From Arenicella sp. (GTDB lineage: Bacteria; Pseudomonadota; Gammaproteobacteria; Arenicellales; Arenicellaceae), in assembly GCA_047629535.1 (NCBI GenBank), contig JBLHXJ010000001.1, forward strand, positions 41,975-65,974: a DNA stretch of 24,000 nucleotides, written 5' to 3'. Every line of letters begins with the position of its first letter. Positions within the stretch are counted from its first letter, which is position 1. A program made the translations under genes and the position numbers. The notes below the pieces were generated by a model. That model worked only from the letters and a program-made list of their open reading frames with translations. It was not told where the DNA came from and searched no databases. Below are positions 1,068 to 13,309 of the stretch, piece after piece.

Positions 1068-3199
1068 AAGCCCGAGCAGAATATATTATTGGTTCGGGCG
1101 TCATTTTTGTTGGCGTGCTGTTGATGGCATTCTTCTTTTGGAAGTCTGGCGCGATCGACGATACTCGTGAGCATCAGCGCTTTGTAGAAAGTGTCCGCCA
1201 TTTGCAGGCCAGCGATGCAATTCTCGATCAGCACCTTTTACGCTTGCGCAACGGCTCGGCGACTAGCGTTGATAATGTTAACCAAGAGTTAGTTGCGATC
1301 AGCCGATTGAATGCAATTATAGCTAGGCCGCCGGATTATATTTCGCCAAAAGGTACCGCGATTTTGATGGATATTTTGGCAAATTATCATCTGGTGATGG
1401 AGCGTAAGAAATTACTAATTGAGCGCTTTATGGCTGAAAATGCGAATCTTAAAACATCTATTGTGTATTATCCGATTTTGAGTCAAGAGCTGGTAGATAG
1501 CTTAGACGAGATTGAGCAAGGCCAACCTATTACCGAAAAAATACAGACGCTTTTGCGTGATATTTTATTGTTTAACCTTAATACCAACCCTGGTTTAGGT
1601 ATTTCAATTAAAAGCCAAATTGGTCGGCTCGATGCGGCTGGTCAAGCTTACCTCATAGGTGCAAACGCAACGAGCTTGAATTCGATTAGAGGAATTGAAG
1701 ATCTAAGCTTGCAGGGGCAAACGATTCTGCGGGTGAAGCCTGGAGTTGATTCGCTTATTACCGAACTAATGTCGATACCGATAACGGTTGAGCTCGAGAG
1801 CTTTGCAGACGAATACCACCGCTGGTATAGCTATGCGCTAGACAGTGCCAAGTTTTATCGTTTTTGTTTGTACTTTATGATTGTTCTGACAATCATAATT
1901 ATTTCCTGGATGATTATTCGAAACCTTAATGCCCGCATAAGGCGCGCGACCCAATCTATTGCACAACAACGCGATCAGTTAGTAGTCAAACTCGATGAGC
2001 GAAGGGCCCTATCTGAGGTGGCCATGGCGGTCAGTAGCGTTGGTGATCTGAACAAGGTATTAGATACCATATTAGCAAAGAGTCTTGAGGTGGTTGAGGT
2101 CGAAGCAAGCTCCATATTGTTGCTCGATAAAGAGAAAAATGATCTCTATTTTCATACCGTGCAGGGCCGAGTCTCTGACAATCTTAAAGATATACGCATC
2201 GCGTTAGGTCAAGGCTTGGTAGGGCATGTTGCTCAAAACGGCAAAACGGAGGTAGTTTCTGACCCTTATGCGGACCCACGTTTTAACCAACAGGTAGATA
2301 TTGCTACCGGCTTTGTTACCAAATCAATTCTGACAACACCGCTGGTAAGCCAGGATGAAATCATCGGCGTGTTACAGTTGGTAAACCGTCGGCAACAAGA
2401 GTCGTTTGATGATAACGACGTGCTACTAATTGAATCATTCGCGGTACAAGCCGGTATTGCAATCGTAAATTCGCGACTTTATTCCGACGTTAAAAATTAT
2501 GCCAACGACCTTAAAGAGTCTCTCGAAAAAGAACGAACCTTAAGAGTTCAGAAGCAGAAAATGGGTGCTTACATGCCTAAGGATGTGGTCGATCAGATAT
2601 CACGTAGCAGCGAAGAAAAAATCGCTCTTGGTGGTAAGGTAGTGCGCGCCACGATTATGTTCTCAGACATTGTTGGTTTCACCCGTTTGTCAGAACGCTT
2701 GGAACCAGAAAAAGTAGTCGATTTTTTAAATCTTTACATGACCGCGATGAGCAACATCATAGAACAAGAGGGTGGCATTGTAGATAAGTTCATTGGCGAT
2801 GGCATTATGGCCGTTTTTACTGACAGTGAAACTGAGCAGGCAATGGCGGCGGTGCAAGCGGGCTTGAGAATGCAAGCCGCGGTTCAGAGCGAACGAGAAA
2901 GCTGGGGTAGCATTGATCAAGATTTGGCTAAGGTGGAGATTCGTATTGGTATTAACTCCGGCCGAGTAATATCCGGTAATGTAGGGTCCGAACAACGAAT
3001 GGATTACACCGTGATTGGCGACAATGTAAATGTCGCAGCGCGAATCGAGCAAGCGTGTAATCCCGGCGAAGTACTTATTAGTCTATCTACTTTTGAAGAC
3101 GTCAAGCTGCGAGTTAAATCGACCGAAATGGAGCCAATTAAAGTGAAAAATCGAGATCAGGCTGTCCTAACTTATTCAGTCGACTCAGTGTTGTCTTAG
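1064..3199 (+). CDS. Membrane sensor protein: periplasmic helical domain - GAF - class III adenylate cyclase
   Basis: ATG 1064 overlaps the upstream TGA (ATGA at 1064-1067). Two predicted TM helices (aa ~8-27 and ~263-287) bracket a helical extracytoplasmic region of about 235 aa. A GAF-like region spans aa ~316-468 (nt ~2009-2467). The cyclase homology domain spans aa ~525-700 (nt ~2636-3163) and contains FSDIVGFT, DKFIGDGIMAVF and DYTVIGDNVNVAARIE (metal Asp, Asn/Arg). The Lys575/Thr648 pair suggests ATP as substrate (class IIIb-like). Confidence 0.9.
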   Translation: MKARAEYIIGSGVIFVGVLLMAFFFWKSGAIDDTREHQRFVESVRHLQASDAILDQHLLRLRNGSATSVDNVNQELVAISRLNAIIARPPDYISPKGTAILMDILANYHLVMERKKLLIERFMAENANLKTSIVYYPILSQELVDSLDEIEQGQPITEKIQTLLRDILLFNLNTNPGLGISIKSQIGRLDAAGQAYLIGANATSLNSIRGIEDLSLQGQTILRVKPGVDSLITELMSIPITVELESFADEYHRWYSYALDSAKFYRFCLYFMIVLTIIIISWMIIRNLNARIRRATQSIAQQRDQLVVKLDERRALSEVAMAVSSVGDLNKVLDTILAKSLEVVEVEASSILLLDKEKNDLYFHTVQGRVSDNLKDIRIALGQGLVGHVAQNGKTEVVSDPYADPRFNQQVDIATGFVTKSILTTPLVSQDEIIGVLQLVNRRQQESFDDNDVLLIESFAVQAGIAIVNSRLYSDVKNYANDLKESLEKERTLRVQKQKMGAYMPKDVVDQISRSSEEKIALGGKVVRATIMFSDIVGFTRLSERLEPEKVVDFLNLYMTAMSNIIEQEGGIVDKFIGDGIMAVFTDSETEQAMAAVQAGLRMQAAVQSERESWGSIDQDLAKVEIRIGINSGRVISGNVGSEQRMDYTVIGDNVNVAARIEQACNPGEVLISLSTFEDVKLRVKSTEMEPIKVKNRDQAVLTYSVDSVLS

Positions 3200-3323
3200 C
3201 GTCATGTCGTTAATGTATTTTCTTGTAGCTAAATTAAACTTAGTAATTAAGTGAAAATACTGTTAATAGCTAATTCCTACTTTAGCTTATGATAGGCCTA
3301 ACTCTATTGCTGTTGTTATCTGT

Positions 3324-4169
3324 ATGAAAACACCGAAAAGACTATTGCCGCTGATTGAAGACGGCTTGGTCGACGAAGTCCTTGGTCAACTGATGAGTGG
3401 CAAAGAAGCCACTGTGTATATGGTGCGCTGTGGCTCCGAGGTTCGTTGTGCCAAAGTGTATAAAGAAGCCGCACAGCGAAGCTTCAAAAAAGCAGTGCAA
3501 TACCAAGAAGGCCGTCGTGTGCGTAATAGCCGCCGCGGCCGGGCAATGGAAAAGGGCTCTAAGTTTGGACGCGATCAACAAGAAGAAATTTGGCAAAGTG
3601 CCGAGGTAGACGCCTTATATAAACTTGCCGCCGCTGGGGTGCGAGTGCCAGAGCCCTACGGTTGCTTCAACGGTGTGCTGTTAATGGAGTTAATTACCGA
3701 TGAAGAAGGCTACGTAGCACCGCGTCTAAACGACGTGGAACTAAGCCCAGAACGAGCGCGGCGTGACCATGCCGTGGTTATGCAAGACGTTATTAAAATG
3801 TTATGCGTTGGCCTAATTCATGGCGACTTATCTGAATTTAATGTGTTGGTTGATGAAGTTGGCCCGGTAATTATCGACCTGCCACAAGCCGTTAACGCGG
3901 CGGGTAATAACAATGCAAAAGCCATGCTCGAACGAGACGTGCGCAACATGACTAACTACTATGGCCAATTCGCACCTGAATTACTCGAGAGCGAACACGC
4001 AAAAGAAATTTGGAAGCTCTATGAAAAAGGCGACCTCAAAGCAGATACTAAGCTCACGGGCATTGTCGAAATAGATACTCGCCCAGCTAATGTCGACTCA
4101 GTAATGCTAGAAATCAAAGCGGCTTTCGAAGAACAGGAAGAGCGTTTGCAGCGATTGAGTGATGATTAG
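3324..4169 (+). CDS. RIO-type serine protein kinase/ATPase
   Basis: 281-aa ORF. It has the RIO ATP-loop motif SGKEATVY, the catalytic loop LIHGDLSEFNVL and the metal-binding IIDLPQAV. An AT-rich 124-bp upstream spacer precedes it. Confidence 0.85.
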   Translation: MKTPKRLLPLIEDGLVDEVLGQLMSGKEATVYMVRCGSEVRCAKVYKEAAQRSFKKAVQYQEGRRVRNSRRGRAMEKGSKFGRDQQEEIWQSAEVDALYKLAAAGVRVPEPYGCFNGVLLMELITDEEGYVAPRLNDVELSPERARRDHAVVMQDVIKMLCVGLIHGDLSEFNVLVDEVGPVIIDLPQAVNAAGNNNAKAMLERDVRNMTNYYGQFAPELLESEHAKEIWKLYEKGDLKADTKLTGIVEIDTRPANVDSVMLEIKAAFEEQEERLQRLSDD

Positions 4170-4183
4170 CTATAAGGCTTTGT

Positions 4184-5698
4184 TTATTTTATTGTTGATC
4201 TCTTTTCATCTGTCACCCCGATTTTGCTTCTAACAATCTCCGACTCTTGCGGGCTGAGCTCGACACTTGCATCGATTATTTTTTCAAAATGTGCTGTATC
4301 CCAAGTGTTTTCGCCACTTAAGCAATAAACATAGAGCTCGGGAAAATCTTCAATTGCCAGTTGGTCTTCGATAAAAAGCGTTTCAATTAATTTTGAATCT
4401 TCGCCTTTGCGTTTACTGTCGTAGGCCATGTTCACTGGCAGAGCGTCTTTACGACATAATACGCTGCCTTCCCATAGTCGAATATTTGAGCAATATACTT
4501 TGTTATTTTCTCGTCGGTGGATTAACCAACGAGGTAAAACTGAGGCGGCCTTATTCTGTTTTAAGGCTGATTCTAATTGCCTTGAAAGACGTGTCGGATG
4601 ATACCAATCATCGTCATCCCACTGGCAAACGAACCGGCCCTTGGCCATTTCGATCGAAAAATTGCGCAAATCACCTAGGCTTTTCTTTGCTTCGATCGGC
4701 ACAACGTGATGCCTTATTTCTTTATTATTAAGGCCCTTCAAGAACTTGTGTGTTGCCGTGTCATCAGATTCGCTAATCACGACCAGCTCTTTATGTGAAT
4801 AGCTTTGTGCCTGAAAACAATCAATAGCGCGCTCTAATAGTGCTACCCGGCCACGGGTCACGCACAAACAGGATATTAGCGGGGCTGGAGAGTTTGACGA
4901 CGACGGCTTGTCGGCCAATCTATATTTTGTTTGCTGGGCGTTAGTGGTGATGTCCTTTTGTGCAATCGAACGATAAAACGATGGTGGCCGTTCGTAATAC
5001 AGGGTTAACAGTGAGAGGTTGCGTATATAGCTCTGGGGATCAATGCCGTTAGGCTCACTTGACTGATGCCACAAATGGTAGGCAATGCCCTTAAGTGTTG
5101 CCATTTTGGTAGCAAAAAAGGCTACCCGCTTGGACATGGCGTCGTCTTCTGCACCCCAGCCTTCAAAGCGTTCATCCATACCGCCCGTCGCGTGGTAAAG
5201 TCTTCGTGTAAGGGCGAACGCTCCTCCGCAGAAGGGGGGGTATTGGCCTATCGACTGTCGGTTTGTCTGTTGCCTTGTTCTATTAATATGCAGCGATTGT
5301 GTCTGCGCTAAAAGCTGTTGTGATTCCTCCTGGCTTAGGTCAACTAAAACGTCATACGGATTGATCGCGTCTACATCGTTGTTCATTTGTTGGCAAATCT
5401 CATCTAACGCAGCTGCGCTAATGAGCATGTCTGAATCGGCGAATACCAGCCGCTCACAGCTTGCATAATTAGCGGCGATGTTCAGCCCCCAGGATTTATT
5501 GAAGCGCCCAGAATTCTCAACAAATACATACTTGATGTTAGCTTGCTGTTGGTTTTTAAATTGAGGGGTAGCGTCTTGCTCGACGAGAATTATCTCTAAG
5601 CTTCGGTCGAGGCTGAGCTGCTGTAAAAGGAAGTGTAAGTTATGTTGCCGACCTTGATCAGATTGGCGATAGGTTATTAGGTAAGAGAAGCGATACAT
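4184..5698 (-). CDS. Two-domain glycosyltransferase: N-terminal beta-1,4-galactosyltransferase-like (GT7/Glyco_transf_7C-like) + C-terminal GT2
   Basis: N-domain (aa 1-~215): ILVEQD, RFNKSWGLNIAANYA, FADSDM (DxD) and FCGGAFALTRRLYHATGGMDERFEGWGAEDDAMSKR, which parallels the beta4GalT FGGVSAL...WGWGGEDDD block. C-domain (aa ~270-504): ISCLCVTRGR, ELVVISESDD, LGDLRNFSIEMAKGRFVCQWDDDDWYHP (classic GT2). No TM segment is evident. Confidence 0.85.
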   Translation of the reverse strand: MYRFSYLITYRQSDQGRQHNLHFLLQQLSLDRSLEIILVEQDATPQFKNQQQANIKYVFVENSGRFNKSWGLNIAANYASCERLVFADSDMLISAAALDEICQQMNNDVDAINPYDVLVDLSQEESQQLLAQTQSLHINRTRQQTNRQSIGQYPPFCGGAFALTRRLYHATGGMDERFEGWGAEDDAMSKRVAFFATKMATLKGIAYHLWHQSSEPNGIDPQSYIRNLSLLTLYYERPPSFYRSIAQKDITTNAQQTKYRLADKPSSSNSPAPLISCLCVTRGRVALLERAIDCFQAQSYSHKELVVISESDDTATHKFLKGLNNKEIRHHVVPIEAKKSLGDLRNFSIEMAKGRFVCQWDDDDWYHPTRLSRQLESALKQNKAASVLPRWLIHRRENNKVYCSNIRLWEGSVLCRKDALPVNMAYDSKRKGEDSKLIETLFIEDQLAIEDFPELYVYCLSGENTWDTAHFEKIIDASVELSPQESEIVRSKIGVTDEKRSTIK

Positions 5699-5855
5699 AT
5701 AAATTCTAATTAACGAGTTGCGTCGGGTTTACTGGCGTAAGACTATGCATAACAATATAACGGATAACCGTGTCCGAGTTCTATTAGAGTAAGATGGTTC
5801 ACAGTTGCGGGCAACCGCGTTCATTTCACTGATAATTTAAATTAAAAAGTACACT

Positions 5856-6512
5856 ATGAAACAAGCGCCATCTCCACAAGTATTGATTGGCACGCCTGCT
5901 TACAATGGCATGCTGCATACAGACTATCTGCATTCGATTCTTGGTTTTGTAAAAAATGACATCCCGCATGCGGTGATGACCATTGGTAATGAGAGTTTGA
6001 TCACTCGGGCCAGGAATACAATTTTGGCCAGTTTCTGGGAGGCCGACACGTTTACCCATCTACTTTTCCTTGATGCTGATGTGTTTCTTGACCATCAGGG
6101 CCTTAGCCAAATGCTTAGCCATAATAAAGATGTTGTTGGCGCGCCAGTTTATCTGAAAGGCAAGAACGCAGACGGCGAACAAACCGCAAATACAGATGCC
6201 AAACTGAATGTTCTGCCGGTGCTTCAATCAGTAACTAGAGTTGGCACCGCAGCACTGCTGCTATCACGTTCGGCGGTTAATTCTTTGGTCGCCCACGCAA
6301 TCAAGCAAGATCGGACCTACAGCATAAATAAGATGCTTCGACATGAAGGGATGGCAACCACCCACTACGATGTGTTCAGAGTGGGTATCTCTAATGACGA
6401 GTATTTATCAGAAGATTTTTGGCTTTGCAAAGAATTGCGAGAGCTGGGTCACGAAATTCACGTCGACACCTCGGTATACACTCGCCATAACGGTATGGTC
6501 TGCTTCGACTAG
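5856..6512 (+). CDS. Small putative GT-A fold glycosyltransferase
   Basis: 218-aa ORF. VLIGTPAYNG opens a Rossmann-like strand. It also has SLITRARNTILASF and HLLFLDADVFL (DxD). I cannot assign a CAZy family by eye. It is divergent from the 4184-5698 gene across a 157-bp spacer. Confidence 0.65.
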   Translation: MKQAPSPQVLIGTPAYNGMLHTDYLHSILGFVKNDIPHAVMTIGNESLITRARNTILASFWEADTFTHLLFLDADVFLDHQGLSQMLSHNKDVVGAPVYLKGKNADGEQTANTDAKLNVLPVLQSVTRVGTAALLLSRSAVNSLVAHAIKQDRTYSINKMLRHEGMATTHYDVFRVGISNDEYLSEDFWLCKELRELGHEIHVDTSVYTRHNGMVCFD

Positions 6513-6634
6513 CGCGGTCTTAATATGAGCGCTAGTCGGTAATCCGTGGACCAGTTTTTATAGCTGTACGCTGGAATAAATTTGCCCTAGGCTGATTCGT
6601 CTAGGGCAACGGCTTCGGCGTAAGAAAAACTGAC

Positions 6635-7486
6635 TTATGCCCAGCTAGACTTCGACAAGCTGAAATTAAACGCAACGTTTGAATTTGCTGGCATAGGCGT
6701 GGTTGGCATAGGCGTTGTTGGCATAGACGTGGTTGGCATAGACGTGGTTGGCATAGACGTAGACGTGGTAGTCGGTACGCCTGTAGTCGTTGGTGCAACA
6801 GTAGTCGTTGGTGCGCCTGTAGTCGTTGGTGCAACAGTAGTCGTTGGTGCCGCAGTGGTGGTTGCCACCGGCGCGCAAACTGGATCAGACGAAGAGACAG
6901 TAAATGCTCCAGTTTCACCTAAGCCACTAATGGAACCCGTAGCCGAAGTTGGCACAGTCGCGCTGTTAAGCGTTGCCGTCACTGTAAAGCCAGAGTGCAA
7001 ACCCACAACGCTTACTGCGGTGCCGTTAACAGAGCCTTTTTGAACATCAACTTCATTATTATTTAGAGTCAATGAAACGGTTGCAACGCCGGCTTCAAGT
7101 GTGAGCAGTACGCAACCGCCATTTAATACTGTAATGGGCGCTTCTTCGGCATATGCCTGACCAATGAAAATATCCAGAATATCGTTAACATCAACGCCGT
7201 CATTTTCAGCCTTGGATATCGATATGCCGCCGCCGCCGCCCATTACTACAACAGCAGCACTGGTTTGTGCATGGCTTGGAAGTATTACCGCGTCAAGTAA
7301 TGGCTTTTTCCATTTATCAGGGACTAAGCTAGTTGAAATAACCGCGCCGCCGCCAATTAAGGTATTTCTTAATACTGTACGTCTAGCATTCTTCTGCTCT
7401 ACACCAACAGCTAGCTCTTGTTGCTCAGCTGATTTAGACGAAGGTGTCGCTTCGCTACTCAATGAATCATTTGTATCTTTAGGCAT
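6635..7486 (-). CDS. Exported protein with twin-arginine-like signal and C-terminal Thr/Pro-rich mucin-like repeat tail
   Basis: The ORF is open to TTG 7549, but the first ATG is at 7486 (MPKDTND...), and using it removes the overlap with the divergent gene. ARRTVLRNTLIGGGAVISTSLV is followed by LPSHA|Q, a possible signal-peptidase site. A central region of about 130 aa is rich in Gly/Val/Thr and carries 2 Cys. The tail is APVATTTAAPTTTVAPTTTGAPTTTVAPTTTGVPTTTSTSMPTTSMPTTSMPTTPMPTTPMP (62 aa, 27 Thr), followed by ANSNVAFNFSLSKSSWA. Confidence 0.75.
   Translation of the reverse strand: MPKDTNDSLSSEATPSSKSAEQQELAVGVEQKNARRTVLRNTLIGGGAVISTSLVPDKWKKPLLDAVILPSHAQTSAAVVVMGGGGGISISKAENDGVDVNDILDIFIGQAYAEEAPITVLNGGCVLLTLEAGVATVSLTLNNNEVDVQKGSVNGTAVSVVGLHSGFTVTATLNSATVPTSATGSISGLGETGAFTVSSSDPVCAPVATTTAAPTTTVAPTTTGAPTTTVAPTTTGVPTTTSTSMPTTSMPTTSMPTTPMPTTPMPANSNVAFNFSLSKSSWA
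6689..6874 (-). repeat. In-frame coding tandem repeats (15-bp x5 and 36-bp x2) encoding the PT-rich tract
   Basis: The 15-bp units are at 6690-6704, 6705-6719, 6720-6734, 6735-6749 and 6750-6764 (ggcata[g/a][g/a]cgt[g/t]gtt; units 3 and 4 are identical). They encode MPTT(S/P). The 36-bp units at 6780-6815 and 6816-6851 match at 35 of 36 positions and encode (APTTTV/APTTTG). Confidence 0.95.
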
Positions 7487-7496
7487 TTTTAATACT

Positions 7497-7524
7497 TTGG
7501 CGGTAGTTAATATGGTCTTATAAT
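7497..7524 (+). promoter_or_regulatory. Candidate sigma70-type promoter for the GT32-FkbM / mega-GT operon
   Basis: TTGGCG (7497-7502), a 16-bp spacer, then a perfect TATAAT (7519-7524), about 95 nt upstream of ATG 7620. This is a pattern match only. Confidence 0.3.
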
Positions 7525-7570
7525 AACCCGAATAATAATTGGCTGCCAAGGGCTATAGGTTAACTTCTAG

Positions 7571-7591
7571 GCTACTCTTTGCTAGAGTAGC
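7571..7591. promoter_or_regulatory. Perfect 8-bp inverted repeat (operator or 5'-UTR hairpin candidate)
   Basis: gctactct (7571-7578), ttgct, agagtagc (7584-7591). It lies in the 133-bp divergent spacer between the PT-protein gene and the GT32-FkbM gene, 29 nt upstream of ATG 7620. Confidence 0.3.
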
Positions 7592-7619
7592 GGGAATATC
7601 CCTCCAGCACCGATTGATT

Positions 7620-9437
7620 ATGATTCCTAAAATTATCCACCAAACTTGGAAAACCGATCAGGTTCCAGAGCAGTGGAAGGCATTTGCCCAGTCATGGAAA
7701 TCGCATCACCCCGATTGGGAGTATCGGCTGTGGAGCAACGCTGATGGCGCTGAGTTTGTCGAACATTTCTATCCTCATTTCGAACAGACATATTGGTCCT
7801 ATCGATACGATATACAGCGCGCTGATGCGATTCGCTACCTAATAATTTATCATTATGGTGGTATCTATGCCGACCTTGATTTTGAATGCCTGCAATCATT
7901 TGAGAGCCTACGTGACAATCACAAGCTGGTTATCGGCTTTGAGCCTAAGGAGCATGCGCAGGCTCAATCATTGCAAGAAGTGTTATGCAATGCGTTATTC
8001 GCGTCAAAGCCTCGGTCAAAATTTTTAAAAGCCGTTATTGATTTTTTAATAGCGGACGACACTCCGACGATTGGACTTGGGGATGTATTGAGAACCTCTG
8101 GCCCAGTGATGTTGCAGAATGTGTATGAGCAATTTAATAAAAGTGACGTAGATGCTCATCCGCCGGTCCGCTTTTACCCGTTTGAAAATAATGCCCCAGA
8201 ATTAACCCAGCTAGCCAAAAATTCGGATGAAAGTGAACGCATAAGGCAAAAACTGATAGGTTTGGGTTGTTTTGCGGTGCACCACTGGGCAAATTCATGG
8301 ACCAAAGATTTGGCCGGTGAACTGATGAATCCGAGCGCCGATTCAGTTGAGGGGTTTGATTTTTATCCGATGTATGATTCACCTGGGATGGATTTATTTA
8401 ACGGTGGTAGAGAGGTCGCAGCACTTGCAGAACGATGCAGAGCTGATTCTCAGGTAGTAGCGTTCAATACCGATGGCTTTGCAAAGCACACTATCGCCTC
8501 AATATCTGATTTGAGCGTAATGTTAAACGCGAATCAAAATGAAGGGATATATATAAAAAGACCCATCGCTAACGCTAAAGAGGTTTTAGAGCAGCACGAG
8601 AATATGCAACTGGTCTATATTGCCGCTGCTGGCCCTCGGCCATTTAGTCTGTTTGTCGATCAAACCAACGATCTAGTAATTGCTCAGTTTATTGAGAGTA
8701 ACCGCATTTGGGAGCCGCTTGAAACCGCCTTAGTCAGCAAGTTAGTATCCCCAGGCGAAAACGTAATCGACATAGGAGCCAACATTGGCTATTTCACGGT
8801 ACTTTTTTCGCAACTAGTGGGCGAACAAGGCAAAGTGCTGGCGTTCGAACCGGAAGCAAAAAATTACTCTTTATTAAAGGCCAATATATTAATTAATCGC
8901 TTAGATAATGTGGTTATTGAAAATCAAGCGCTGTCCAATACTCAGGGAGTCGCTGATCTATACTTATCTAGTTACAATAAAGGTGATCATCGACTTGGCT
9001 ACACCGCCGGCCGAGAGAAGCAACAAATTAGCAGTATTGAGCTTGACCAATACCTGTCAGGCAACGCCCTGCCGATTCATTTTATTAAATCCGATACCCA
9101 AGGTCATGAGCTTAAAGTGCTGCAGGGTATGACCAAGTTAATTGAGCGAAATAGTGCATACTTATGCTGCTTGCTGGAATTCTCTCCAGGGTTATTGATC
9201 ACTGCAGAACCTAGAGGCGTTGAAGATTTTATCGATTTCTTTGACTTATTCGAGACCGAAATATATTTGATTCAGGAGGTGGCTCGGAACGCCGAATTAG
9301 TATTAATGGATAGCGCCGCATTGCGGCAACTGGCGCGCATAATGTTGCAGCACGAAGCGCAAGACCATTCCGTCAATACTTTAATTTTTTTTAGCACTAA
9401 CGCTCGAATCAAGTATTTCGCTAAAATGGGTTGGTGA
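7620..9437 (+). CDS. Fusion protein: GT32-type glycosyltransferase (Gly_transf_sug, DXD) - unassigned ~70-aa module - FkbM-family methyltransferase
   Basis: The ORF-track start at 7539 is a TTG. ATG 7620 gives MIPKIIHQTWKT, the canonical GT32 N-terminus. RADAIRYLIIYHYGGIYADLDFECL carries the DXD. The FkbM region (nt ~8616-9398) has VIDIGANIGYFTV, LAFEPEAKNYSLLKANI and IHFIKSDTQGHELKVLQGM. Its stop overlaps the next gene. Confidence 0.85.
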   Translation: MIPKIIHQTWKTDQVPEQWKAFAQSWKSHHPDWEYRLWSNADGAEFVEHFYPHFEQTYWSYRYDIQRADAIRYLIIYHYGGIYADLDFECLQSFESLRDNHKLVIGFEPKEHAQAQSLQEVLCNALFASKPRSKFLKAVIDFLIADDTPTIGLGDVLRTSGPVMLQNVYEQFNKSDVDAHPPVRFYPFENNAPELTQLAKNSDESERIRQKLIGLGCFAVHHWANSWTKDLAGELMNPSADSVEGFDFYPMYDSPGMDLFNGGREVAALAERCRADSQVVAFNTDGFAKHTIASISDLSVMLNANQNEGIYIKRPIANAKEVLEQHENMQLVYIAAAGPRPFSLFVDQTNDLVIAQFIESNRIWEPLETALVSKLVSPGENVIDIGANIGYFTVLFSQLVGEQGKVLAFEPEAKNYSLLKANILINRLDNVVIENQALSNTQGVADLYLSSYNKGDHRLGYTAGREKQQISSIELDQYLSGNALPIHFIKSDTQGHELKVLQGMTKLIERNSAYLCCLLEFSPGLLITAEPRGVEDFIDFFDLFETEIYLIQEVARNAELVLMDSAALRQLARIMLQHEAQDHSVNTLIFFSTNARIKYFAKMGW

Positions 9438-12400
9438 GTATCAACGGTATAAAATACTATTCCATGCTTGAGTCATCCGGCTATGGACTGTCTGCGATTA
9501 GCTATTTGAATGCGTTGCTTGACCTCGAGTGCCCAATACATTGGATTCCACTGGTCTTGGGCGAGCGAGGTTACCAACCATGGTATCAATCGACATCGGC
9601 CGAGCAGCAAGTTCGCCAATTGCTGATCGAGTGTCTGACTGACGACAGTCAAATAGACAGACTGATGGCGTGTCTAGAGCCGATTAACAACTATCAATGC
9701 ATATTCATGCATACCGTGCCGGAGTATTGGCCTCATCTTAAAGAGCCCAATAAATATCAAATCGGCTATAGCGTGTGGGAGACTAGTTGCCTACCTAAGC
9801 ATTTTCCTGAGCTCATCAATCAGCTTGACCGAGTGCTAGTACCCAGCACATTTAATCGACCGATATACGAGCGTTCGGGGGTTGAGATTCCGATAGACGT
9901 GGTGCCGCATATTCTAAATAAGCCCGCGCCTGCGGCTAAGGCGACCGTCGATACTATGCGTAGCTTGATTGAGGTTGCGCCAGAAAACTACCTCTTCTAT
10001 TGCATCAATGAATGGACCGCTCGCAAGGCGCTATGGGTTTTGGTTGACGCCTATCTAAGCAGCTTTAGTGCTGATGACTCGGTGTCTTTAGTACTAAAAA
10101 CATCGGCTCGAGGCCCGCGATCGGAAACCGATGCAGACCAGTACGACACACAACTATTGGTGGCACAAATAGCTGCTGGCTATACTGCACCTGCGCATAT
10201 TAAAGTGATTAATCATAAAATCACTAACCCTGAGATCACCGCATTACACCAACTTGGCGATTGCTTTGTCTCTACCAGTCGTAGCGAAGGCTGGGGCTTG
10301 GGTATGTTTGAAGCTGCGGGAATGGGTAACCCGGTGATTGCTACCGGCTGGGGCGGGCATCTCGATTTTCTTACAGAGCAGTCGAGCTATCTGTCATCCT
10401 ATCAATTGACTCAAGTGGTGGATACTCAAGCTGAATCGTCCTACAGTAGCGAACAACAGTGGGCTCAAGTTGATCAAACAAGTATCTCTAAGCATTTAAA
10501 AACGGTGTTCGCCAATCCTCAATTAGCGCAGCAAAACGCTCAAGATTTGGCTCTAGAGCTAAATGAAAAGTATAATTCAGCACAGCTTGGTATACAGCTC
10601 TATAAAGCAATTATGGCAACTAACATCCCCAAGATTTTTCATTTTATATTCGGTTTGAAAGAACAAACTGAGCCGTTTCATCTGGCCTACTATCTTTGTT
10701 TAAAATCCTGCCTCGAGGTTAACAAGCCGAGCGCGCTACATTTTTACTATCATTACCAACCTTATGGTGAATACTGGGAGTTGATAAAACCTCACCTGAC
10801 GCTAATCGAAGTAGAGTTGGAATCTTTTGTAAAACACAATAACGCCTACCAAGATCACCAAGAAGGTCAGTTTATCAAGGCCGCTAAACTCGATTATGCG
10901 CATCAAGCGGATTTTATCCGCTTAAAAAAATTGATAGAATACGGTGGTGTTTATGCTGACATGGACACCCTATTTGTAAACCCAATACCGGATGATCTGT
11001 ATCAGCATCCGTTTGTGATAGGCCGTGAACAGAGTGTTATCGACCCCGTAAGCAAGAAAAAAAATCCGTCATTGTGCAACGCGCTGCTGATGTCCGAACC
11101 CAATTCAGAGTTCGCGCGCCAATGGCTAAAGGCTAGTTATCAATCGTTTGACGGAACCTGGAGTTCGCACTCGTGCCAGTTAGCGGCGACACTTGCAAGC
11201 GAGTTGCCCGATACGGTGCACATTGCGCCGCAACGTTTCTTCTTCAAGCACATGTGGACAAAGCCGGGTATTAGCTCGTTATTTGAAGAGCTTGATGATG
11301 ACTTCGAGCAAGTCTATAGCATGCATATGTGGAACCATCTGTGGTGGGACCAATCGAGAGTAGACTTTTCGAGTTTTCATCAAGGCTTGATCACCGAACA
11401 AAATATTATGACGGTAGATACCACTTATAATGTTATCGCCAGACAATTTTTACCAACAGCAAGTAAGGCAACAACTAGCCCAATTAACAAAGAGCCCTCT
11501 GAAAAATTGAAAAATTCATCCTCATCAATCTTGATTCCAGTAATAGAAGTTAGTTGGGAACTTTCTCAAGAGCAAGGTTCCAGCCGCTTTTCCAATACTC
11601 AAACGGGCCATTCCTTCGCCACTAACGAAACTACAAATTTAATTCTTCAACAGTGCGATGGAATTAAAAATGTTGACGCTATCATTGATTCGCTGAGTGA
11701 GCGCTTTGGTGATGATTTCGACAGTATAGGGCATGATGTTAAAACTACTTTGCGCGAACTAGCTTTGAGTGGCGCGATTCGATTTAAACAAATCACACCG
11801 GCTCTACCAGTTGTTCAGCCCACGCCGCCCGAGGCACCCTCAAAGCAGTACAAGTTGTGTATTGGCATGGCCACCTACGATGACTATGACGGTGTCTACT
11901 TTTCGGTGCAGGCGATGCGAATGTATCACCCAGAAATATTGGAGCATGTAGAGTTTTTAGTGCTCGACAACAACCCCACAGGCGTTTGCGCCGACGCGCT
12001 AAAAAACCTTGGTGATTGGATCCCAAACTATCGTTATATTGAAGGCGATAATTTCCAAGGAACCTGGTCTCGATTTTCCTTGATTAACCAAACTAACGCT
12101 CCGTATATTTTGTGTATGGATTCGCACGTGATGGTTTTACCCGGAGCGATTAAGCAACTGTTGGATTATATCGACATTCACCCCGACACACCCGACATGC
12201 TGCAAGGGCCACTAGTGGCCGATGATTTGTTTTCCTTGTCATCGCATTTTACGCCCGGCTGGGGTAGTGGCATGTATGGCAAATGGGCAACAGATTCAAG
12301 AGCGGAAGATCTCGACAACCCTGGGTTTGATATCCCAATGCAAGGGCTTGGTTTGTTTGCCTTTCGCAAAGATAGCTGGCCGCAAGTAAACTCACGCTTT

Positions 12401-13309
12401 AAAGGGTTTGGCGGCGAAGAGGGCTATGTGCATGAGAAAGTTCGGCGTGCCGGTGGGCGAACATTATGTCTACCATTTTTACGCTGGGTACACCGCTTTA
12501 ACCGACCGATGGGCACGCGCTATGCGCTCAGTTGGCATGATCGCATTCGCAACTATATGGTCGCGCATGACGAACTGGATGTTGATAATAGCGAGATGAT
12601 TGAACACTTCAATTCGTTTATAGGCGAGGCCGAAACCGCAACAATAGTTGCCGATGTTGAAGCTGAAATTAACAATCCATTCTACTTTTTTGATGCTATT
12701 TACTGTATCAACTTAGATCGACAAGAAGAACGATGGAAGACCGCACAGGCACAATTCGATAAGCTTGGCATTACCCATCGAGTTCAGCGTTTTTCCGCTA
12801 TTGAAACACCCGAAAATCACCATATAGGGTGTGCCTTGTCACACCGAGCAATTATTCAAATGGCATCGGTCAATAAGCACAAAAATGTATTGGTGTTAGA
12901 AGATGATGTGATCTTCGATGCGGCCACACTGACTGATCTTGCAAATAGCCTGGATGAGGCAAAAGCCGAAAGCTGGGATGTATTATATTTAGGTGGACAT
13001 TGTTGGGACAAGCGATATCCACTTGTAAGTGGGCGTGAACATTTAAGAGAACTGGTCAGTGGCGAAGTTGGGCCAACCACAACCCATGCGATTGTCTATG
13101 GCGATTCCAGTTATTCGCAACTGCTTAATGATCTTCCCGAGACTATCGCGCAGATGACAAGCGCCATTGATCAAGGGTGGTTAGCGATTGATCAGTATTT
13201 GGCCGTTGAGACAACGCTAAGAAAGCTGATAACCGAACCTAGAGTGGCAAGTCAGCCACCGCTTCTTATCCAAGAAGAAGATAGCTTTACACCGATACTT
13301 TCGGCATAG
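9431..13309 (+). CDS. 1292-aa multi-domain glycosyltransferase: GT4 - GT32 - PqqD-like - DxH GT-A (GT2/GT27-like) - GT25
   Basis: The start is TTG 9431 or GTG 9434, overlapping the upstream TGA (9435-9437). ATG 9464 would delete the first beta-strand IKYYS. GT4 (aa 1-~392): EX7E in SRSEGWGLGMFEAAGMGNPVIATGWGG (nt 10286-10312). GT32 (aa ~397-672): IPKIFHFIFG and ADFIRLKKLIEYGGVYADMDTLF. PqqD-like: aa ~704-786. GT-A (aa ~806-1045): FLVLDNNP, CMDSHV (nt 12119-12127), GFGGEEGY and WVHRF. GT25 (aa ~1085-1280): AIYCINLDRQEERW, GCALSHRA and VLVLEDDVIF. No TM segment is evident. Confidence 0.85.
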   Translation: MVSINGIKYYSMLESSGYGLSAISYLNALLDLECPIHWIPLVLGERGYQPWYQSTSAEQQVRQLLIECLTDDSQIDRLMACLEPINNYQCIFMHTVPEYWPHLKEPNKYQIGYSVWETSCLPKHFPELINQLDRVLVPSTFNRPIYERSGVEIPIDVVPHILNKPAPAAKATVDTMRSLIEVAPENYLFYCINEWTARKALWVLVDAYLSSFSADDSVSLVLKTSARGPRSETDADQYDTQLLVAQIAAGYTAPAHIKVINHKITNPEITALHQLGDCFVSTSRSEGWGLGMFEAAGMGNPVIATGWGGHLDFLTEQSSYLSSYQLTQVVDTQAESSYSSEQQWAQVDQTSISKHLKTVFANPQLAQQNAQDLALELNEKYNSAQLGIQLYKAIMATNIPKIFHFIFGLKEQTEPFHLAYYLCLKSCLEVNKPSALHFYYHYQPYGEYWELIKPHLTLIEVELESFVKHNNAYQDHQEGQFIKAAKLDYAHQADFIRLKKLIEYGGVYADMDTLFVNPIPDDLYQHPFVIGREQSVIDPVSKKKNPSLCNALLMSEPNSEFARQWLKASYQSFDGTWSSHSCQLAATLASELPDTVHIAPQRFFFKHMWTKPGISSLFEELDDDFEQVYSMHMWNHLWWDQSRVDFSSFHQGLITEQNIMTVDTTYNVIARQFLPTASKATTSPINKEPSEKLKNSSSSILIPVIEVSWELSQEQGSSRFSNTQTGHSFATNETTNLILQQCDGIKNVDAIIDSLSERFGDDFDSIGHDVKTTLRELALSGAIRFKQITPALPVVQPTPPEAPSKQYKLCIGMATYDDYDGVYFSVQAMRMYHPEILEHVEFLVLDNNPTGVCADALKNLGDWIPNYRYIEGDNFQGTWSRFSLINQTNAPYILCMDSHVMVLPGAIKQLLDYIDIHPDTPDMLQGPLVADDLFSLSSHFTPGWGSGMYGKWATDSRAEDLDNPGFDIPMQGLGLFAFRKDSWPQVNSRFKGFGGEEGYVHEKVRRAGGRTLCLPFLRWVHRFNRPMGTRYALSWHDRIRNYMVAHDELDVDNSEMIEHFNSFIGEAETATIVADVEAEINNPFYFFDAIYCINLDRQEERWKTAQAQFDKLGITHRVQRFSAIETPENHHIGCALSHRAIIQMASVNKHKNVLVLEDDVIFDAATLTDLANSLDEAKAESWDVLYLGGHCWDKRYPLVSGREHLRELVSGEVGPTTTHAIVYGDSSYSQLLNDLPETIAQMTSAIDQGWLAIDQYLAVETTLRKLITEPRVASQPPLLIQEEDSFTPILSA
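11540..11788 (+). other. PqqD-like (RiPP-recognition-element-like) domain embedded in the mega-glycosyltransferase
   Basis: EVSWELSQEQGSSRFSNTQTGHSFATNETTNLILQQCDGIKNVDAIIDSLSERFGDDFDSIGHDVKTTLRELALSGAIRF follows the PqqD-family pattern (x-LNetaaxIwxlxDGxxtvxeIvxxLxxxy...DVxxfLxxLxxxGli). It is flanked by Ser/Thr/Pro-rich linkers. Confidence 0.6.

Follow-up and report, generated by a model that had tools for sequence, protein, structure and literature searches.

A putative cytoplasmic O-glycosylation cassette dedicated to a mucin-like secreted protein in an Arenicella genome

A five-gene cassette is probably dedicated to the O-glycosylation, in the cytoplasm, of just one mucin-like protein that is secreted. 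It spans 9.4 kb and consists of four soluble glycosyltransferase (GT) polypeptides flanking a single PT protein of 283 aa (P0001), the presumed substrate (Table 1). The presumed core enzyme, the C-terminal RRE-DxH-GT25 module of a 1292-aa protein, belongs to a widespread family found beside Thr-rich genes in many bacterial phyla, and the literature searched contained no description of this family or of such a glycosylation system. Dedicated protein O-glycosylation had been proposed in an earlier note on this DNA; the idea is now backed by conservation of the cassette, by cross-phylum adjacency and by folds resembling ppGalNAc-Ts and COLGALT1.

Gene content and layout of the cassette

The window, i.e. 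the whole stretch of 24,000 nucleotides that was analysed, comes from an Arenicella-like gammaproteobacterium of sea ice or sediment. Pfam recognizes about eight GT domains in the cassette (the share of the 218-aa protein being tentative) together with single FkbM methyltransferase and PqqD/RRE domains. The GT and FkbM count, the ORF sizes of 504, 218, about 605 and 1292 aa around the PT gene and a divergent control region of 133 bp had all been given in the earlier note and agree with the Pfam search, the ORF check and the measured interval. Its further statements that the GT polypeptides have no obvious TM helix and that export, priming and nucleotide-sugar genes are absent from the window also stand: none of the four is predicted to have a TM helix, as no 19-residue window reaches a Kyte-Doolittle value of 1.6, and neither Wzx/Wzy/Wzz, an ABC/OPX exporter, a priming transferase nor nucleotide-sugar genes are among the annotated genes of the window. 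Its flanks encode cytochrome c peroxidase, a DAHL-GAF adenylate cyclase, a RIO kinase, DUF3429, SnoaL_3, GDYXXLXY and DUF2157 proteins, a Na+/H+ exchanger, a hydrolase and a HEAT-repeat protein.

The 504-aa protein consists of an N-terminal GT-A domain of the beta4GalT/GT7C-like type with the motif FEGWGAEDD and a C-terminal GT2 domain (Glycos_transf_2, E 2e-20; Glyco_transf_7C, E 2e-11; Glyco_tranf_2_2). In the 605-aa protein P0002, a DXD glycosyltransferase of family GT32 (Gly_transf_sug, E 4e-22) is followed by a middle part without assignment and an FkbM-type methyltransferase (Pfam E 7e-17; NCBIfam fkbM_fam E 5e-29). Its gene overlaps that of the 1292-aa protein by 7 nt, which suggests coupled translation. 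The 218-aa protein is tentatively regarded as a glycosyltransferase on the basis of a marginal Pfam match to GT21 (23.0 bits, cutoff 21.7); Anp1 stays below its cutoff, the PDB match is A197 (E 0.26), and its look-alikes in the atlas are mainly phage hypothetical proteins, few of them with Anp1/GT2. Both the 504-aa and the 218-aa genes are kept in the cassettes of loci L001 and L006.

Between the convergent 218-aa and PT genes lies an inverted repeat that, judged by its sequence, is a possible bidirectional terminator; with a loop of more than 8 nt, it was outside what the terminator scan reports. The divergent intergenic region contains two facing sigma-70-like sites (7497-7524 on the plus strand, 7549-7520 on the minus strand), each matching at 10 of 12 positions, which are weak candidates since the number of such sites is not above that in shuffled sequences. 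RNA-library contigs on the cassette are found only on or at the PT gene and originate from two metatranscriptome libraries of different studies. Such contigs are not proof of transcription and weakly back the proposed glycosylation system.

Table 1. Features of the cassette; positions refer to the window.
Feature	Position	Strand	Basis or detail
504-aa two-domain glycosyltransferase	4184..5698	-	Pfam; soluble
218-aa small GT-A-like protein	5856..6512	+	Marginal Pfam only; GT status tentative
Inverted repeat GCCCTAG ... CTAGGGC	6584..6607	.	Read from sequence
PT protein P0001, 283 aa, presumed glycosylation substrate	6635..7486	-	Translation; ATG 7486 to stop 6635
P0001 C-terminal tail ANSNVAFNFSLSKSSWA, 17 aa, non-repeat	6638..6688	-	Conserved in orthologues
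P0001 Thr/Pro tract, residues 207-266, proposed O-glycan acceptor	6689..6868	-	Composition
P0001 small all-beta domain, residues about 122-197	6896..7123	-	AF2: seven strands
P0001 leader, residues 1-73	7268..7486	-	RR at 35-36, Gly/Ala-rich h-region, KW.KP...D.V.LP.HA box ending SHA/QTS
Divergent intergenic region, PT gene vs 605-aa gene, exactly 133 bp	7487..7619	.	Sequence
605-aa GT32-FkbM protein P0002	7620..9437	+	Pfam, NCBIfam; ATG 7620
1292-aa multi-GT protein (GT4, GT32, RRE, DxH GT-A, GT25)	9431..13309	+	Pfam
GT4 (GT-B) domain	9806..10576	+	Pfam GT4-conflict E 7e-11, Glycos_transf_1; PDB matches B736L, WbaZ
GT32 DXD domain	10823..11137	+	Pfam Gly_transf_sug E 2e-9, Caps_synth; PDB match Legionella SetA E 1.6e-6
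PqqD-like RRE domain, residues about 700-787	11528..11791	+	Pfam PqqD E 6e-8
DxH GT-A domain, residues 805-1080, ppGalNAc-T-like	11843..12670	+	Invariant DSH, GFGGEEGY, W.HRF motifs
GT25 domain, residues 1083-1292, COLGALT1-like	12677..13306	+	Pfam Glyco_transf_25 40 bits vs cutoff 24

The PT protein and the core module

P0001 matches no family in Pfam, NCBIfam or PADLOC. It begins with a leader that resembles a twin-arginine signal, followed by a small beta domain, which is the only part modelled by AF2 with a pLDDT of 70-87, the Thr/Pro tract and a conserved tail. In the 60-aa tract, 27 residues are Thr (45 %) and 12 are Pro (20 %), compared to 9 % Thr in the remainder of the protein, and only four ORFs in the whole 2.68-Mb genome are as Thr-dense as P0001. 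The product had been described as ending in a Thr tract; the Thr-dense tract is real, but it is not terminal, being followed by the 17-aa tail. At the DNA level, the tract is made of tandem arrays (15 nt x4.8 and 18/36 nt), and a 15-nt length polymorphism was observed in two independent metagenomes. Among orthologues, its length and sequence differ while the Thr richness stays, and the tail is kept as N.N..FNFSLSKS.W[AS] (L001, L007, L009, L010).

An alignment of the leader revealed invariant R, W, P, P, H and A residues. The leader profile matched 4,659 cluster representatives, always at the N-terminus, and the W.KP...LPAHAQTS leader is a general signal on thousands of mostly non-Thr-rich proteins. 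Since at least one of these has no RRE nearby, the RRE may not read the leader. TatC is encoded in the window's genome.

In the 1292-aa protein, Pfam identified GT4, GT32, PqqD, GT2 and GT25 domains. The PqqD-like domain, which the earlier note had listed, was confirmed (E 6e-8), but its RRE-type peptide-binding nature had been missed: profile searches match it to PqqD (3g2b) and the lasso-peptide RREs TbiB1/TfuB1, and AF2 predicts strands followed by three helices (pLDDT 82-90). A peptide-binding domain of this type points to substrate docking. For the adjoining DxH domain, the best structural matches are GalNAc-T1/2/4/7/10/12, PGANT9 and TgGalNAc-T3 (VIA-align Z 20.4-22.4, rmsd about 3.1 A over about 253 residues), with a margin of only 1-3 Z units over generic GT2 folds. 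The GT25 domain matches COLGALT1 in a PDB profile search (E 3e-7, EDD aligned), and a Foldseek search with both core GT domains gave COLGALT1 at E 4e-19. Both the DxH and the GT25 domains keep invariant metal- and sugar-binding motifs, and we propose the DxH domain as the initiating transferase.

From these features we infer the following route. P0001 would be synthesized with its twin-arginine-type leader and a disordered Thr/Pro tract, and the unfolded substrate would be docked in the cytoplasm by the RRE domain of the core module. The DxH domain would then attach the first sugar to Thr and the GT25 domain the second. In the Arenicella lineage, where GT4 and GT32 domains are joined to the core in one protein, these domains, the GT32-FkbM protein, the beta4GalT-like/GT2 protein and the small GT-A-like protein would extend and probably methylate the glycan. 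Finally, the bulky glycoprotein would leave via the Tat pathway, with the leader presumably cut between SHA and QTS.

Recurrence of the core and other readings of the locus

The same set of five genes recurs in further Arenicella-like genomes (L001/L013, L007, L009, L010/L011), its Thr-rich protein again having the leader and tail of P0001; there, the left flanks differ and the right flanks partly differ from those of the window. An orthologue of P0001 is present in every complete cassette, and the 1292-aa orthologues share 72-78 % identity. In a split and rearranged version (about 48 % identity), there are two substrate genes in tandem, one of which encodes a run of 20 Thr. The RRE-DxH-GT25 module itself matched 443 places in contigs representing one genome per species. 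Its distribution is patchy and accessory (27 of the 121 genomes of the order, 6/16 of the genus), with distant homologues at about 45-53 % identity in many phyla; the loci belong to Gammaproteobacteria, Alphaproteobacteria, Desulfobacterota, Acidobacteriota, Actinomycetota, Planctomycetota and Fraserbacteria. The domain combination, which the earlier note did not know as a described system, is not a one-off: the Arenicella form elaborates on a two-GT core system that is widespread.

Of 83 non-redundant loci, 46, spread over at least six phyla, have a Thr-rich or leader-bearing ORF within 3 kb of the core module; among loci with full flanks the share is 27/46. These neighbours are separated from the module by a median of 96 bp, and 37 of the 46 are on the same strand. 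Near the GT gene we counted 0.97 Thr-rich ORFs per 10 kb, compared to 0.058 at a distance of 3-10 kb and 0.015 in the window's genome; the density within 3 kb is 17-fold that at 3-10 kb. The earlier note had asked whether a PT gene consistently accompanies relatives of the 1292-aa protein: a Thr-rich or leader-bearing ORF does at these 46 loci, but 37 of the 83, including 19 of the 46 with full flanks, have no obvious Thr-rich neighbour. Either the pairing, though frequent, is therefore not universal, or the substrates are encoded elsewhere.

By a strict test, an RR followed by a hydrophobic stretch is present in 30 of 38 Thr-rich neighbours and in 2.5 % of background ORFs; most failures visibly bear an RR or are cut by a contig end. 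What substrates have in common across phyla is the RR signal and Thr richness, not sequence. In Acidobacteriota, a PqqD domain at the N-terminus precedes the RR and hydrophobic segment, which by its position could equally be a membrane anchor or a signal peptide. The RRE is placed in three ways: fused to the GT (window), free-standing (L004, L005) or fused to the Thr-rich substrate (L032, L055, L073), where the GT lacks it. In several leader-associated GTs, a PqqD domain was not detected.

At five loci (L004, L023, L044, L062, L066), the neighbour is a peptide of about 100 aa, made only of the leader and a core of 40-65 % Thr; L062 belongs to a cultured strain, Oricola indica JL-62. Precursors of this size with a 25-60-aa Thr-rich core, often in tandem copies, would also suit a RiPP-type pathway, in which the leader is removed and the released glycopeptide is diffusible and bioactive, like a glycocin-type bacteriocin or signal, instead of a structural mucin-like surface protein. 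Besides the RRE domain itself, free PqqD, HprK-like ScmC, NTP_transf_5 and sulfotransferase genes at related loci are typical of RiPP clusters, and RRE-GT fusions have been flagged as unexplained, as outside known classes and as candidate new RiPP classes (PMC7470986, PMC12710340). We nevertheless consider such a product unlikely, given that the window's substrate (283 aa) contains a folded beta domain and ends in a conserved tail, that neither a protease nor an export ABC transporter is among the window's genes, and that poly-Thr cores are unlike known antimicrobial cores. The central chemistry, Thr O-glycosylation, is common to this reading and to the dedicated system favoured here; only the role of the product differs.

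A free glycan (capsule, EPS, LOS core or glycolipid) as the product of the GT island, with the PT gene as an unrelated neighbour or one for a surface protein that is only co-regulated, appears quite unlikely. Flippase, polymerase, ABC/OPX exporter and lipid-linked priming transferase are absent from the window and from four related loci (L001, L004, L005, L006), the PT gene moves with the GTs into different contexts, the most constant neighbour of the module across phyla is a gene with an RR signal and a Thr-rich tract, and polysaccharide synthesis has no use for a peptide-binding RRE domain. This outweighs the Pfam names, GT25, GT32, GT4 and GT2 being best known from LPS/LOS and capsule synthesis, weak NCBIfam matches to WcaA, TuaG and EpsD, the resemblance of the 504-aa protein to chondroitin and heparosan synthases and the loci without a Thr-rich neighbour. 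The alternative raised in the earlier note, that the GTs usually sit in capsule, O-antigen or EPS loci with exporters and no PT gene, is not what we found.

A bacterial proteoglycan, with a Thr-linked linker made by the core module and a repeating disaccharide polymerised on it by the 504-aa enzyme, is improbable. The best solved relatives of this two-domain protein are K4CP chondroitin synthase, heparosan synthase and beta4GalT7, the proteoglycan-linker GalT, and its PDB sequence matches also include beta4GalT1; it resembles bifunctional GAG synthases, and K4CP and heparosan synthase 2 are among the Foldseek matches of the core module as well. Similarities of this kind (E 1e-4 to 1e-6) are, however, generic for proteins with two GT-A domains, conservation of the accessory GTs stops at the Arenicella lineage, and genes for UDP-GlcA or other precursors are absent nearby. 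Least probable is that the GTs act elsewhere on P0001, on the N-F-S sequon of the tail or the beta domain, with the tract as a spacer only: N-x-S/T sequons occur in the tail of all Arenicella-type orthologues and Pro/Thr linkers are common spacers, but distant substrates have neither tail nor beta domain and share only Thr richness past the leader, and the closest folds are Ser/Thr and hydroxylysine O-glycosyltransferases, not GT41 N-glycosyltransferases.

Comparison with known systems

With Tat proofreading chaperones of the TorD/DmsD/NapD type, the proposed O-glycosylation system has a conceptual parallel only, a cytoplasmic domain holding a twin-arginine precursor until it is matured; there is no homology, and RRE-leader binding is hypothetical. 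RRE-dependent RiPP systems (PqqD, TbiB1/TfuB1) likewise have a PqqD-type winged-helix domain beside a modifying enzyme, and their short leader-core precursors recur among the relatives. Glycocin GTs (SunS/ThuS type GT2) also glycosylate a peptide with a GT-A enzyme, but those known lack an RRE and add single S- or O-linked sugars to structured peptides. Unlike both groups, the cassette has a poly-Thr core, a substrate that can be as large as the 283-aa P0001 and a Tat-like leader common to thousands of unrelated proteins.

The systems of GtfA/GtfB with serine-rich-repeat adhesins (accessory Sec), HMW1C/HMW1 and Aah/TibC with autotransporters resemble the system proposed here in that soluble GTs are encoded beside one dedicated, repeat-rich secreted substrate, which is glycosylated before export, the glycan being elongated by extra GTs. 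In contrast, the window encodes neither a GtfA/B pair, GT41 nor a heptosyltransferase, and no SecA2/SecY2/Asp, two-partner or autotransporter export machinery; its presumed acceptor is Thr/Pro instead of Ser-rich repeats, the leader is of the twin-arginine type, and the enzyme carries an RRE.

The eukaryotic mucin-type initiators, the ppGalNAc-Ts (CAZy GT27), share the GT-A fold of residues 805-1080 (Z about 22) and, presumably, a Thr/Pro-rich disordered acceptor tract. We take the DSH, a later invariant His and GGEE of the module to match the DxH, His and WGGEN positions of GT27. There is no detectable sequence relationship, however: Pfam places the DxH domain in GT2, and the PDB profile search of the core module contained no GT27 match. 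The enzyme of the window also lacks the ricin-type lectin domain and the type-II membrane anchor, would be cytoplasmic instead of Golgi-lumenal, and is fused to an RRE and a GT25 domain.

The best sequence-profile and Foldseek match is COLGALT1/GLT25D1 (GT25), which, like mimivirus R655, has two tandem GT-A domains with GT25 second and whose EDD catalytic motif aligns. COLGALT1 is a protein O-galactosyltransferase acting on collagen hydroxylysine, whereas the acceptor in the window is presumably Thr. The family described here further differs from it in being bacterial and, as predicted, cytoplasmic, in its added RRE and in a first GT-A domain that keeps invariant metal- and sugar-binding motifs.

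Organization of the cassette and its substrate-like protein

The island consists of five genes, in which P0001, the substrate-like protein with a Pro/Thr (PT) tract, is encoded divergently from P0002, and the last two reading frames overlap by 7 nt. Pfam and NCBIfam searches assigned a beta4GalT/GT7C-like GT-A and a GT2 domain to the 504-aa protein, GT32 and FkbM domains to P0002, and GT4, GT32, PqqD, GT2 and GT25 domains to the 1292-aa protein, while the 218-aa protein gave marginal GT-A-like matches only. The ORF map and the sequence around the PT gene agree with the gene anatomy described in the earlier note, and its statement that the four glycosyltransferase (GT) polypeptides carry no transmembrane helix holds as well, with no hydrophobic 19-mer at a Kyte-Doolittle value of 1.6 or above in any of them. 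It had also reported that exporter, priming and nucleotide-sugar genes are absent from the window, which Pfam confirmed for the main ORFs (the cassette and 10 flanking ORFs, a few small ORFs being left out): the neighbours are unrelated housekeeping and signalling genes, with no polysaccharide export, priming or nucleotide-sugar gene among them. Flippase/polymerase, ABC/OPX exporter and polyprenyl-phosphate priming transferase genes are absent both from these main ORFs and from the called genes of the homologous loci L001, L004, L005 and L006 in other genomes. The number of promoter-like sites in the divergent region did not exceed the shuffled expectation.

Positions of the cassette genes, flanking genes, P0001 features and RNA-library contigs in the window
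Feature	Position	Strand	Basis or remark
Cyclase and RIO-type kinase genes	1064-4169		
504-aa protein	4184-5698	-	ORF map
218-aa protein	5856-6512	+	ORF map
P0001, 283 aa	ATG 7486 to stop 6635	-	ORF map and sequence
P0001 C-terminal tail	6638-6688		residues 267-283
15-nt deletion in P0001 tract	6713-6731		
P0001 second motif	7148-7180		residues 103-113
Divergent spacer, 133 bp	7487-7619		between P0001 and P0002 genes
P0002, 605 aa	7620-9437	+	ORF map
1292-aa protein	9431-13309	+	ORF map
Na+/H+ exchanger gene	17045-19603		
X19, RNA-library contig	6422-6713		100% identical
X20, RNA-library contig	6797-6844 and 6975-7469		about 98% identical

The island is flanked by genes for a DAHL-GAF adenylate/guanylate cyclase and a RIO-type bacterial kinase, and 14 bp separate the end of the RIO gene from that of the 504-aa GT gene. 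A cNMP-binding Na+/H+ exchanger is encoded downstream; the RIO gene is not kept beside the cassette in L001. The closest look-alike clusters of the 218-aa protein are hypothetical proteins of 81-100% viral origin (tailed phages), which suggests a phage-derived accessory transferase. An anti-phage defence system was rejected as PADLOC returned no system match for the five cassette proteins, the one weak match lying in the methyltransferase region of P0002 (mad2, E 8.5e-6).

Arenicella-like metagenome genomes encode the proteins most similar to the 1292-aa one (72-78% identity). In L001, the order of the five genes is identical, the left flank differs and the right flank differs in part. The middle gene encodes a P0001 orthologue that shares the leader, the beta domain and the tail, with a Thr/Pro tract of different length and sequence, and the same holds for L007, L009, L010/L011 and L013. 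As the same five genes recur across differing flanks, they move and evolve together as one cassette. A more distant Arenicella genome (L006, about 48% identity) has the domains spread over more genes, and two tandem substrate-like genes, one with a run of 20 Thr, occupy the middle. What is conserved in the tract is its richness in Thr, not its sequence. The records of L007 and L010, whose contigs share 67-77% identity with the Arenicella cassette, assign them to Polaribacter and Cryomorphaceae MAGs of a single sample series; wrong binning is a likelier explanation than a transfer to Bacteroidota.

P0001 has no family match in Pfam, NCBIfam or PADLOC. Its N-terminus is polar and leads into an RR motif, a weakly hydrophobic stretch rich in Gly and Ala, and a conserved box (KWKKPLLDAVILPSHA/QTS). 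Next come a disordered segment, which contains a second motif resembling this box (DILDIFIGQAYA), a small beta domain of seven strands and the Thr/Pro tract (60 aa, 45% Thr, 20% Pro). The 75-residue beta domain is the only part that AF2 modelled confidently (mean pLDDT of the whole protein 53). The earlier note had let the protein end in the tract, which is in fact followed by a 17-aa non-repeat tail. This tail is conserved (N.N..FNFSLSKS.W[AS]), has alternating hydrophobic residues and carries an N-F-S sequon; its role could be that of an anchoring strand, of a sorting tag or of a further modification site. The second motif, [IL]LD.[LF][VI].[PS]A[HNY]A, also occurs in many proteins (P0124-P0273). 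It lies 30-45 residues past the ..LD.V.LP.HA box of the leader, which it resembles (DILDIFIGQAYA compared with LLDAVILPSHA), and could be the second copy of a recognition or cleavage site, the two copies bordering a propeptide.

At the DNA level, the tract consists of tandem repeats of 15 nt and 18/36 nt. A 15-nt deletion, and with it the loss of one 5-aa unit, is present in DNA contigs from two metagenome runs that are independent of each other; the repeat number of the tract is polymorphic in natural populations. Near-identical DNA was found in ice, brine and marine-sediment metagenomes of several studies. In two metatranscriptome libraries from different studies, the sole contigs on the 9.4-kb cassette lie at the PT gene (X19 and X20), a weak hint of its expression; the missing cover of the GT genes carries no meaning either way.

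The core module and its Thr-rich neighbours across phyla

The last 590 residues of the 1292-aa protein (PqqD, GT2 and GT25) have counterparts at 45-53% identity in many phyla, in proteins 700-1100 aa long. Scanning one genome per species for this module (profile A1) resulted in 443 matching places. It is present in 27 of 121 genomes of the window's order and 6 of 16 of the genus, a patchy, accessory distribution. Cultured carriers of the core system include Oricola indica JL-62 (L062) and Desulforhopalus singaporensis DSM 12130 (L081).

For the gene neighbourhoods, six-frame ORFs of 80 loci out of the 443 matching places were searched. Rather than lying in exporter loci without a PT gene, the case that the earlier note had set against its own proposal, the GT genes have a Thr-rich or leader-bearing ORF within 3 kb at 46 of 83 non-redundant loci, and at 27 of the 46 loci with at least 3 kb on each side. 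The median gap to the GT gene is 96 bp and 37 of the 46 ORFs are on the same strand. Per 10 kb, the density of Thr-rich ORFs is 0.97 near the GT gene, 0.058 at a distance of 3-10 kb and 0.015 in the window's own genome. Among 24 longer loci without a Thr-rich neighbour, a relaxed Ser/Thr scan found out-of-frame noise only and no substrates.

The leader profile detected leader-bearing ORFs in 33 of 87 loci, mostly immediately upstream of the GT gene. Many of them encode peptides of about 100-120 aa, in which the leader precedes a 24-70-aa core with 40-65% Thr, as in L004 (...VPAHAQSS-EISTTTTTTTTTTTTSTSTSTSTSTPVP) and further in L023 (two copies), L044, L062, L066 and L005; P0001, by contrast, has 283 aa and a folded domain. 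At Acidobacteriota, Actinomycetota and Fraserbacteria loci without the leader box, the adjoining ORFs carry a poly-Thr tract together with a canonical RR.F.. motif and a stretch of hydrophobic residues. Under a strict test, 30 of 38 Thr-rich neighbours have an RR with a hydrophobic stretch, compared with 2.5% of background ORFs; of the eight that fail, most show an RR by eye or are truncated by a contig end. The second tandem precursor copy in L004 (5405-5799) seems frameshifted, the leader ORF stopping after ...LLPKK and the poly-Thr coding going on in a different frame; misassembly of the homopolymeric repeat or a real frameshift may be the cause.

Enzyme folds, putative peptide recognition and export signal

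The GT25 assignment of the module is based on Pfam (Glyco_transf_25, 40.2 bits against a cutoff of 24, residues 1131-1178), and the module profile matched human COLGALT1 (E 3e-7) with the EDD motif aligned. A Foldseek search with the whole module ranked COLGALT1 first (E 4e-19), followed by dozens of polypeptide GalNAc-transferases. COLGALT1 is the collagen hydroxylysine galactosyltransferase and has two GT-A domains, the second of which is GT25. Model residues 106-381 (protein residues 805-1080) superpose on the catalytic domains of GalNAc-T1, T2, T4, T7, T10 and T12, Drosophila PGANT9 and Toxoplasma GalNAc-T3 with Z scores of 20.4-22.4 and an rmsd of about 3.1 Å over about 253 residues, compared with Z scores of at most 19.4 for generic GT2 folds. 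In terms of sequence families, this domain does not belong to GT27: Pfam assigns Glycos_transf_2 only, and the A1 profile finds no GalNAc-T in the PDB at E≤1.

Twelve diverse members share invariant D-S-H, GFGGEEGY and W.HRF motifs in the first GT domain and invariant NLD, SHR and EDD motifs in the GT25 domain, so both heads look catalytically competent. The DxH...H metal-site pattern of GT27 is present as the invariant D-S-H and the later His in W.HRF; by motif comparison, DSH, this His and GGEE are the presumed counterparts of DxH, His and WGGEN in GT27. Both closest structural relatives, COLGALT1 and the GalNAc-Ts, act on proteins and not on lipids or polysaccharides. The best solved relative of the GT32 domain in the 1292-aa protein is SetA from Legionella, a protein glucosyltransferase, and the 504-aa protein is similar to beta4GalT1/7 and to bifunctional GAG synthases.

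The PqqD-type peptide-binding domain (RRE) of the 1292-aa protein was recognized by Pfam (E 6e-8), and in the PDB it matches PqqD as well as TbiB1 and TfuB1, which bind the leaders of lasso peptides. AF2 modelled the module with a mean pLDDT of 84 and predicted strands and then three helices for its first 88 residues, with a pLDDT above 80 there. The RRE occurs in three arrangements: fused to the GT as in the window, as a free gene beside the GT together with HprK-like ScmC, NTP_transf_5 or sulfotransferase genes (L004, L005), and at the N-terminus of the Thr-rich substrate with a GT lacking the RRE (L032, with three copies, L055 and L073). This 'Rosetta-stone' pattern links the RRE and the Thr-rich protein with the GT2-GT25 enzyme as parts of one system. 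In the PqqD-fused substrates of Acidobacteriota and Fraserbacteria (L032:6345-7972, three tandem copies; L073:11564-12124; L055:11584-12507), PqqD is N-terminal and precedes the RR and the hydrophobic segment. Since the RR is thus internal, the segment may anchor the protein in the membrane instead of being a signal that is cleaved off.

The P0001 leader, ARRTVLRNTLIGGGAVISTSLVPDKWKKP...SHA/QTS, has the features of a Tat signal: RR, a weakly hydrophobic h-region, a basic c-region and an AxA site. R-R is invariant or almost so across 33 aligned leaders (A2), the substrates of other subfamilies carry RR.F..-type motifs, and TatC is encoded in the window's genome (C54:5207-5839, 236 bits). A profile of the pattern RR..L+..GGG...LP.KW.KP...[DE].V.LPAHAQTS found 4,659 representatives at 50% clustering in the protein library, mostly not Thr-rich. 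These leader-family proteins are small (53-320 aa), often contain Cys, look secreted and have no match in Pfam or NCBIfam. The idea that W.KP...LPAHAQTS is an RRE-specific leader is weakened by these mostly non-Thr-rich carriers, by one gene without an RRE nearby and by several leader-associated GTs without a detectable PqqD. For these reasons, we take the leader primarily as an export signal and regard docking of the substrate to the RRE as putative. The predicted complex of the RRE domain (A1 residues 1-100) with the leader scored 0.30 against a mark of 0.32, which counts neither for nor against docking.

The window's genome encodes a second leader protein of 552 aa, which is not Thr-rich and is followed by NTP_transf_5, a free PqqD and a family-less 281-aa gene (C94:3220-7255, loci L090 and L091). 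This set looks like another RRE-linked modification cassette, and a third PqqD and NTP_transf_5-like pair lies at C126:6782-8182.

A proposed protein O-glycosylation pathway and its relation to known systems

Taken together, these GTs probably O-glycosylate the Thr tract of P0001. From the parts list, the soluble enzymes, their conserved pairing with genes for Thr-rich proteins that carry an RR signal, the folds and the presence of TatC, we infer the following order of docking, sugar addition, methylation, Tat export and cleavage. The precursor would be held in the cytoplasm, probably via the RRE, the ppGalNAc-T-like head would begin O-glycans on Thr and the GT25 head would extend them. The lineage-specific GT4, the two GT32 domains, the two-domain 504-aa enzyme and perhaps the 218-aa protein would elaborate the glycan, which FkbM would methylate. 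Finally, the finished glycoprotein would be exported by Tat and cut by signal peptidase after SHA. The case for Tat is a comparative one: a disordered poly-Thr chain has no fold or cofactor that needs Tat, yet the RR is the one constant that these substrates share across phyla, which would make sense for cargo that is bulky at export.

The joint reading is tentative, and we regard it as a possibility with the odds against it: an undescribed equivalent of mucin-type O-glycosylation in many bacterial phyla, in which a cytoplasmic two-headed enzyme (ppGalNAc-T-like and GT25), usually with an RRE, places dense glycans on poly-Thr peptides and proteins with twin-arginine leaders, and these take the Tat route because they would be bulky glycoconjugates by then. 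In the window's organism, which occurs in sea-ice, brine and sediment metagenomes, the product could form a hydrating or cryoprotective coat comparable to antifreeze glycoproteins, in which Thr repeats bear disaccharides. If true, bacteria would possess a counterpart of this modification with a dedicated enzyme family (443 matching places) and Thr-rich substrates. Tat would be a natural export route for cytoplasmically glycosylated cargo, and export of such pre-glycosylated disordered proteins would explain the twin-arginine signal on a cofactor-free poly-Thr peptide. A function would also be given to the RRE-glycosyltransferase fusions that RiPP genome-mining papers left unexplained. Bacterial production of mucin-like or antifreeze-like glycopeptides would then profit from a soluble bacterial enzyme that modifies Thr repeats in the cytoplasm, guided by a transferable leader.

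A PqqD-like RRE within the modifying enzyme or next to it is a feature that the system shares with RRE-dependent RiPP pathways. Fusions of an RRE with a glycosyltransferase are mentioned by RRE-Finder (PMC7470986) and by an RRE survey of 2025 (PMC12710340), in both cases only as lying outside the known RiPP classes. In the full-text literature searched, we found no account of Thr-rich precursors with GT2-GT25 enzymes, of Tat-signal glycopeptides or of a bacterial ppGalNAc-T homologue system of this sort. The GalNAc-Ts of family GT27 have a C-terminal ricin-type lectin domain and a type-II membrane anchor, whereas the module has GT25 instead and no transmembrane helix. Dedicated cytoplasmic glycosylation by enzymes encoded next to their substrate is known from GtfA/B with serine-rich adhesins and from HMW1C. 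The serine-rich-repeat adhesin system with accessory Sec comprises GtfA-GtfB, SecA2/SecY2/Asp, Ser-rich repeats and LPXTG, none of which Pfam detected in the window, and the repeats here are Thr/Pro. The kind of system is known, but its enzyme family, recognition domain, acceptor and likely export route differ.
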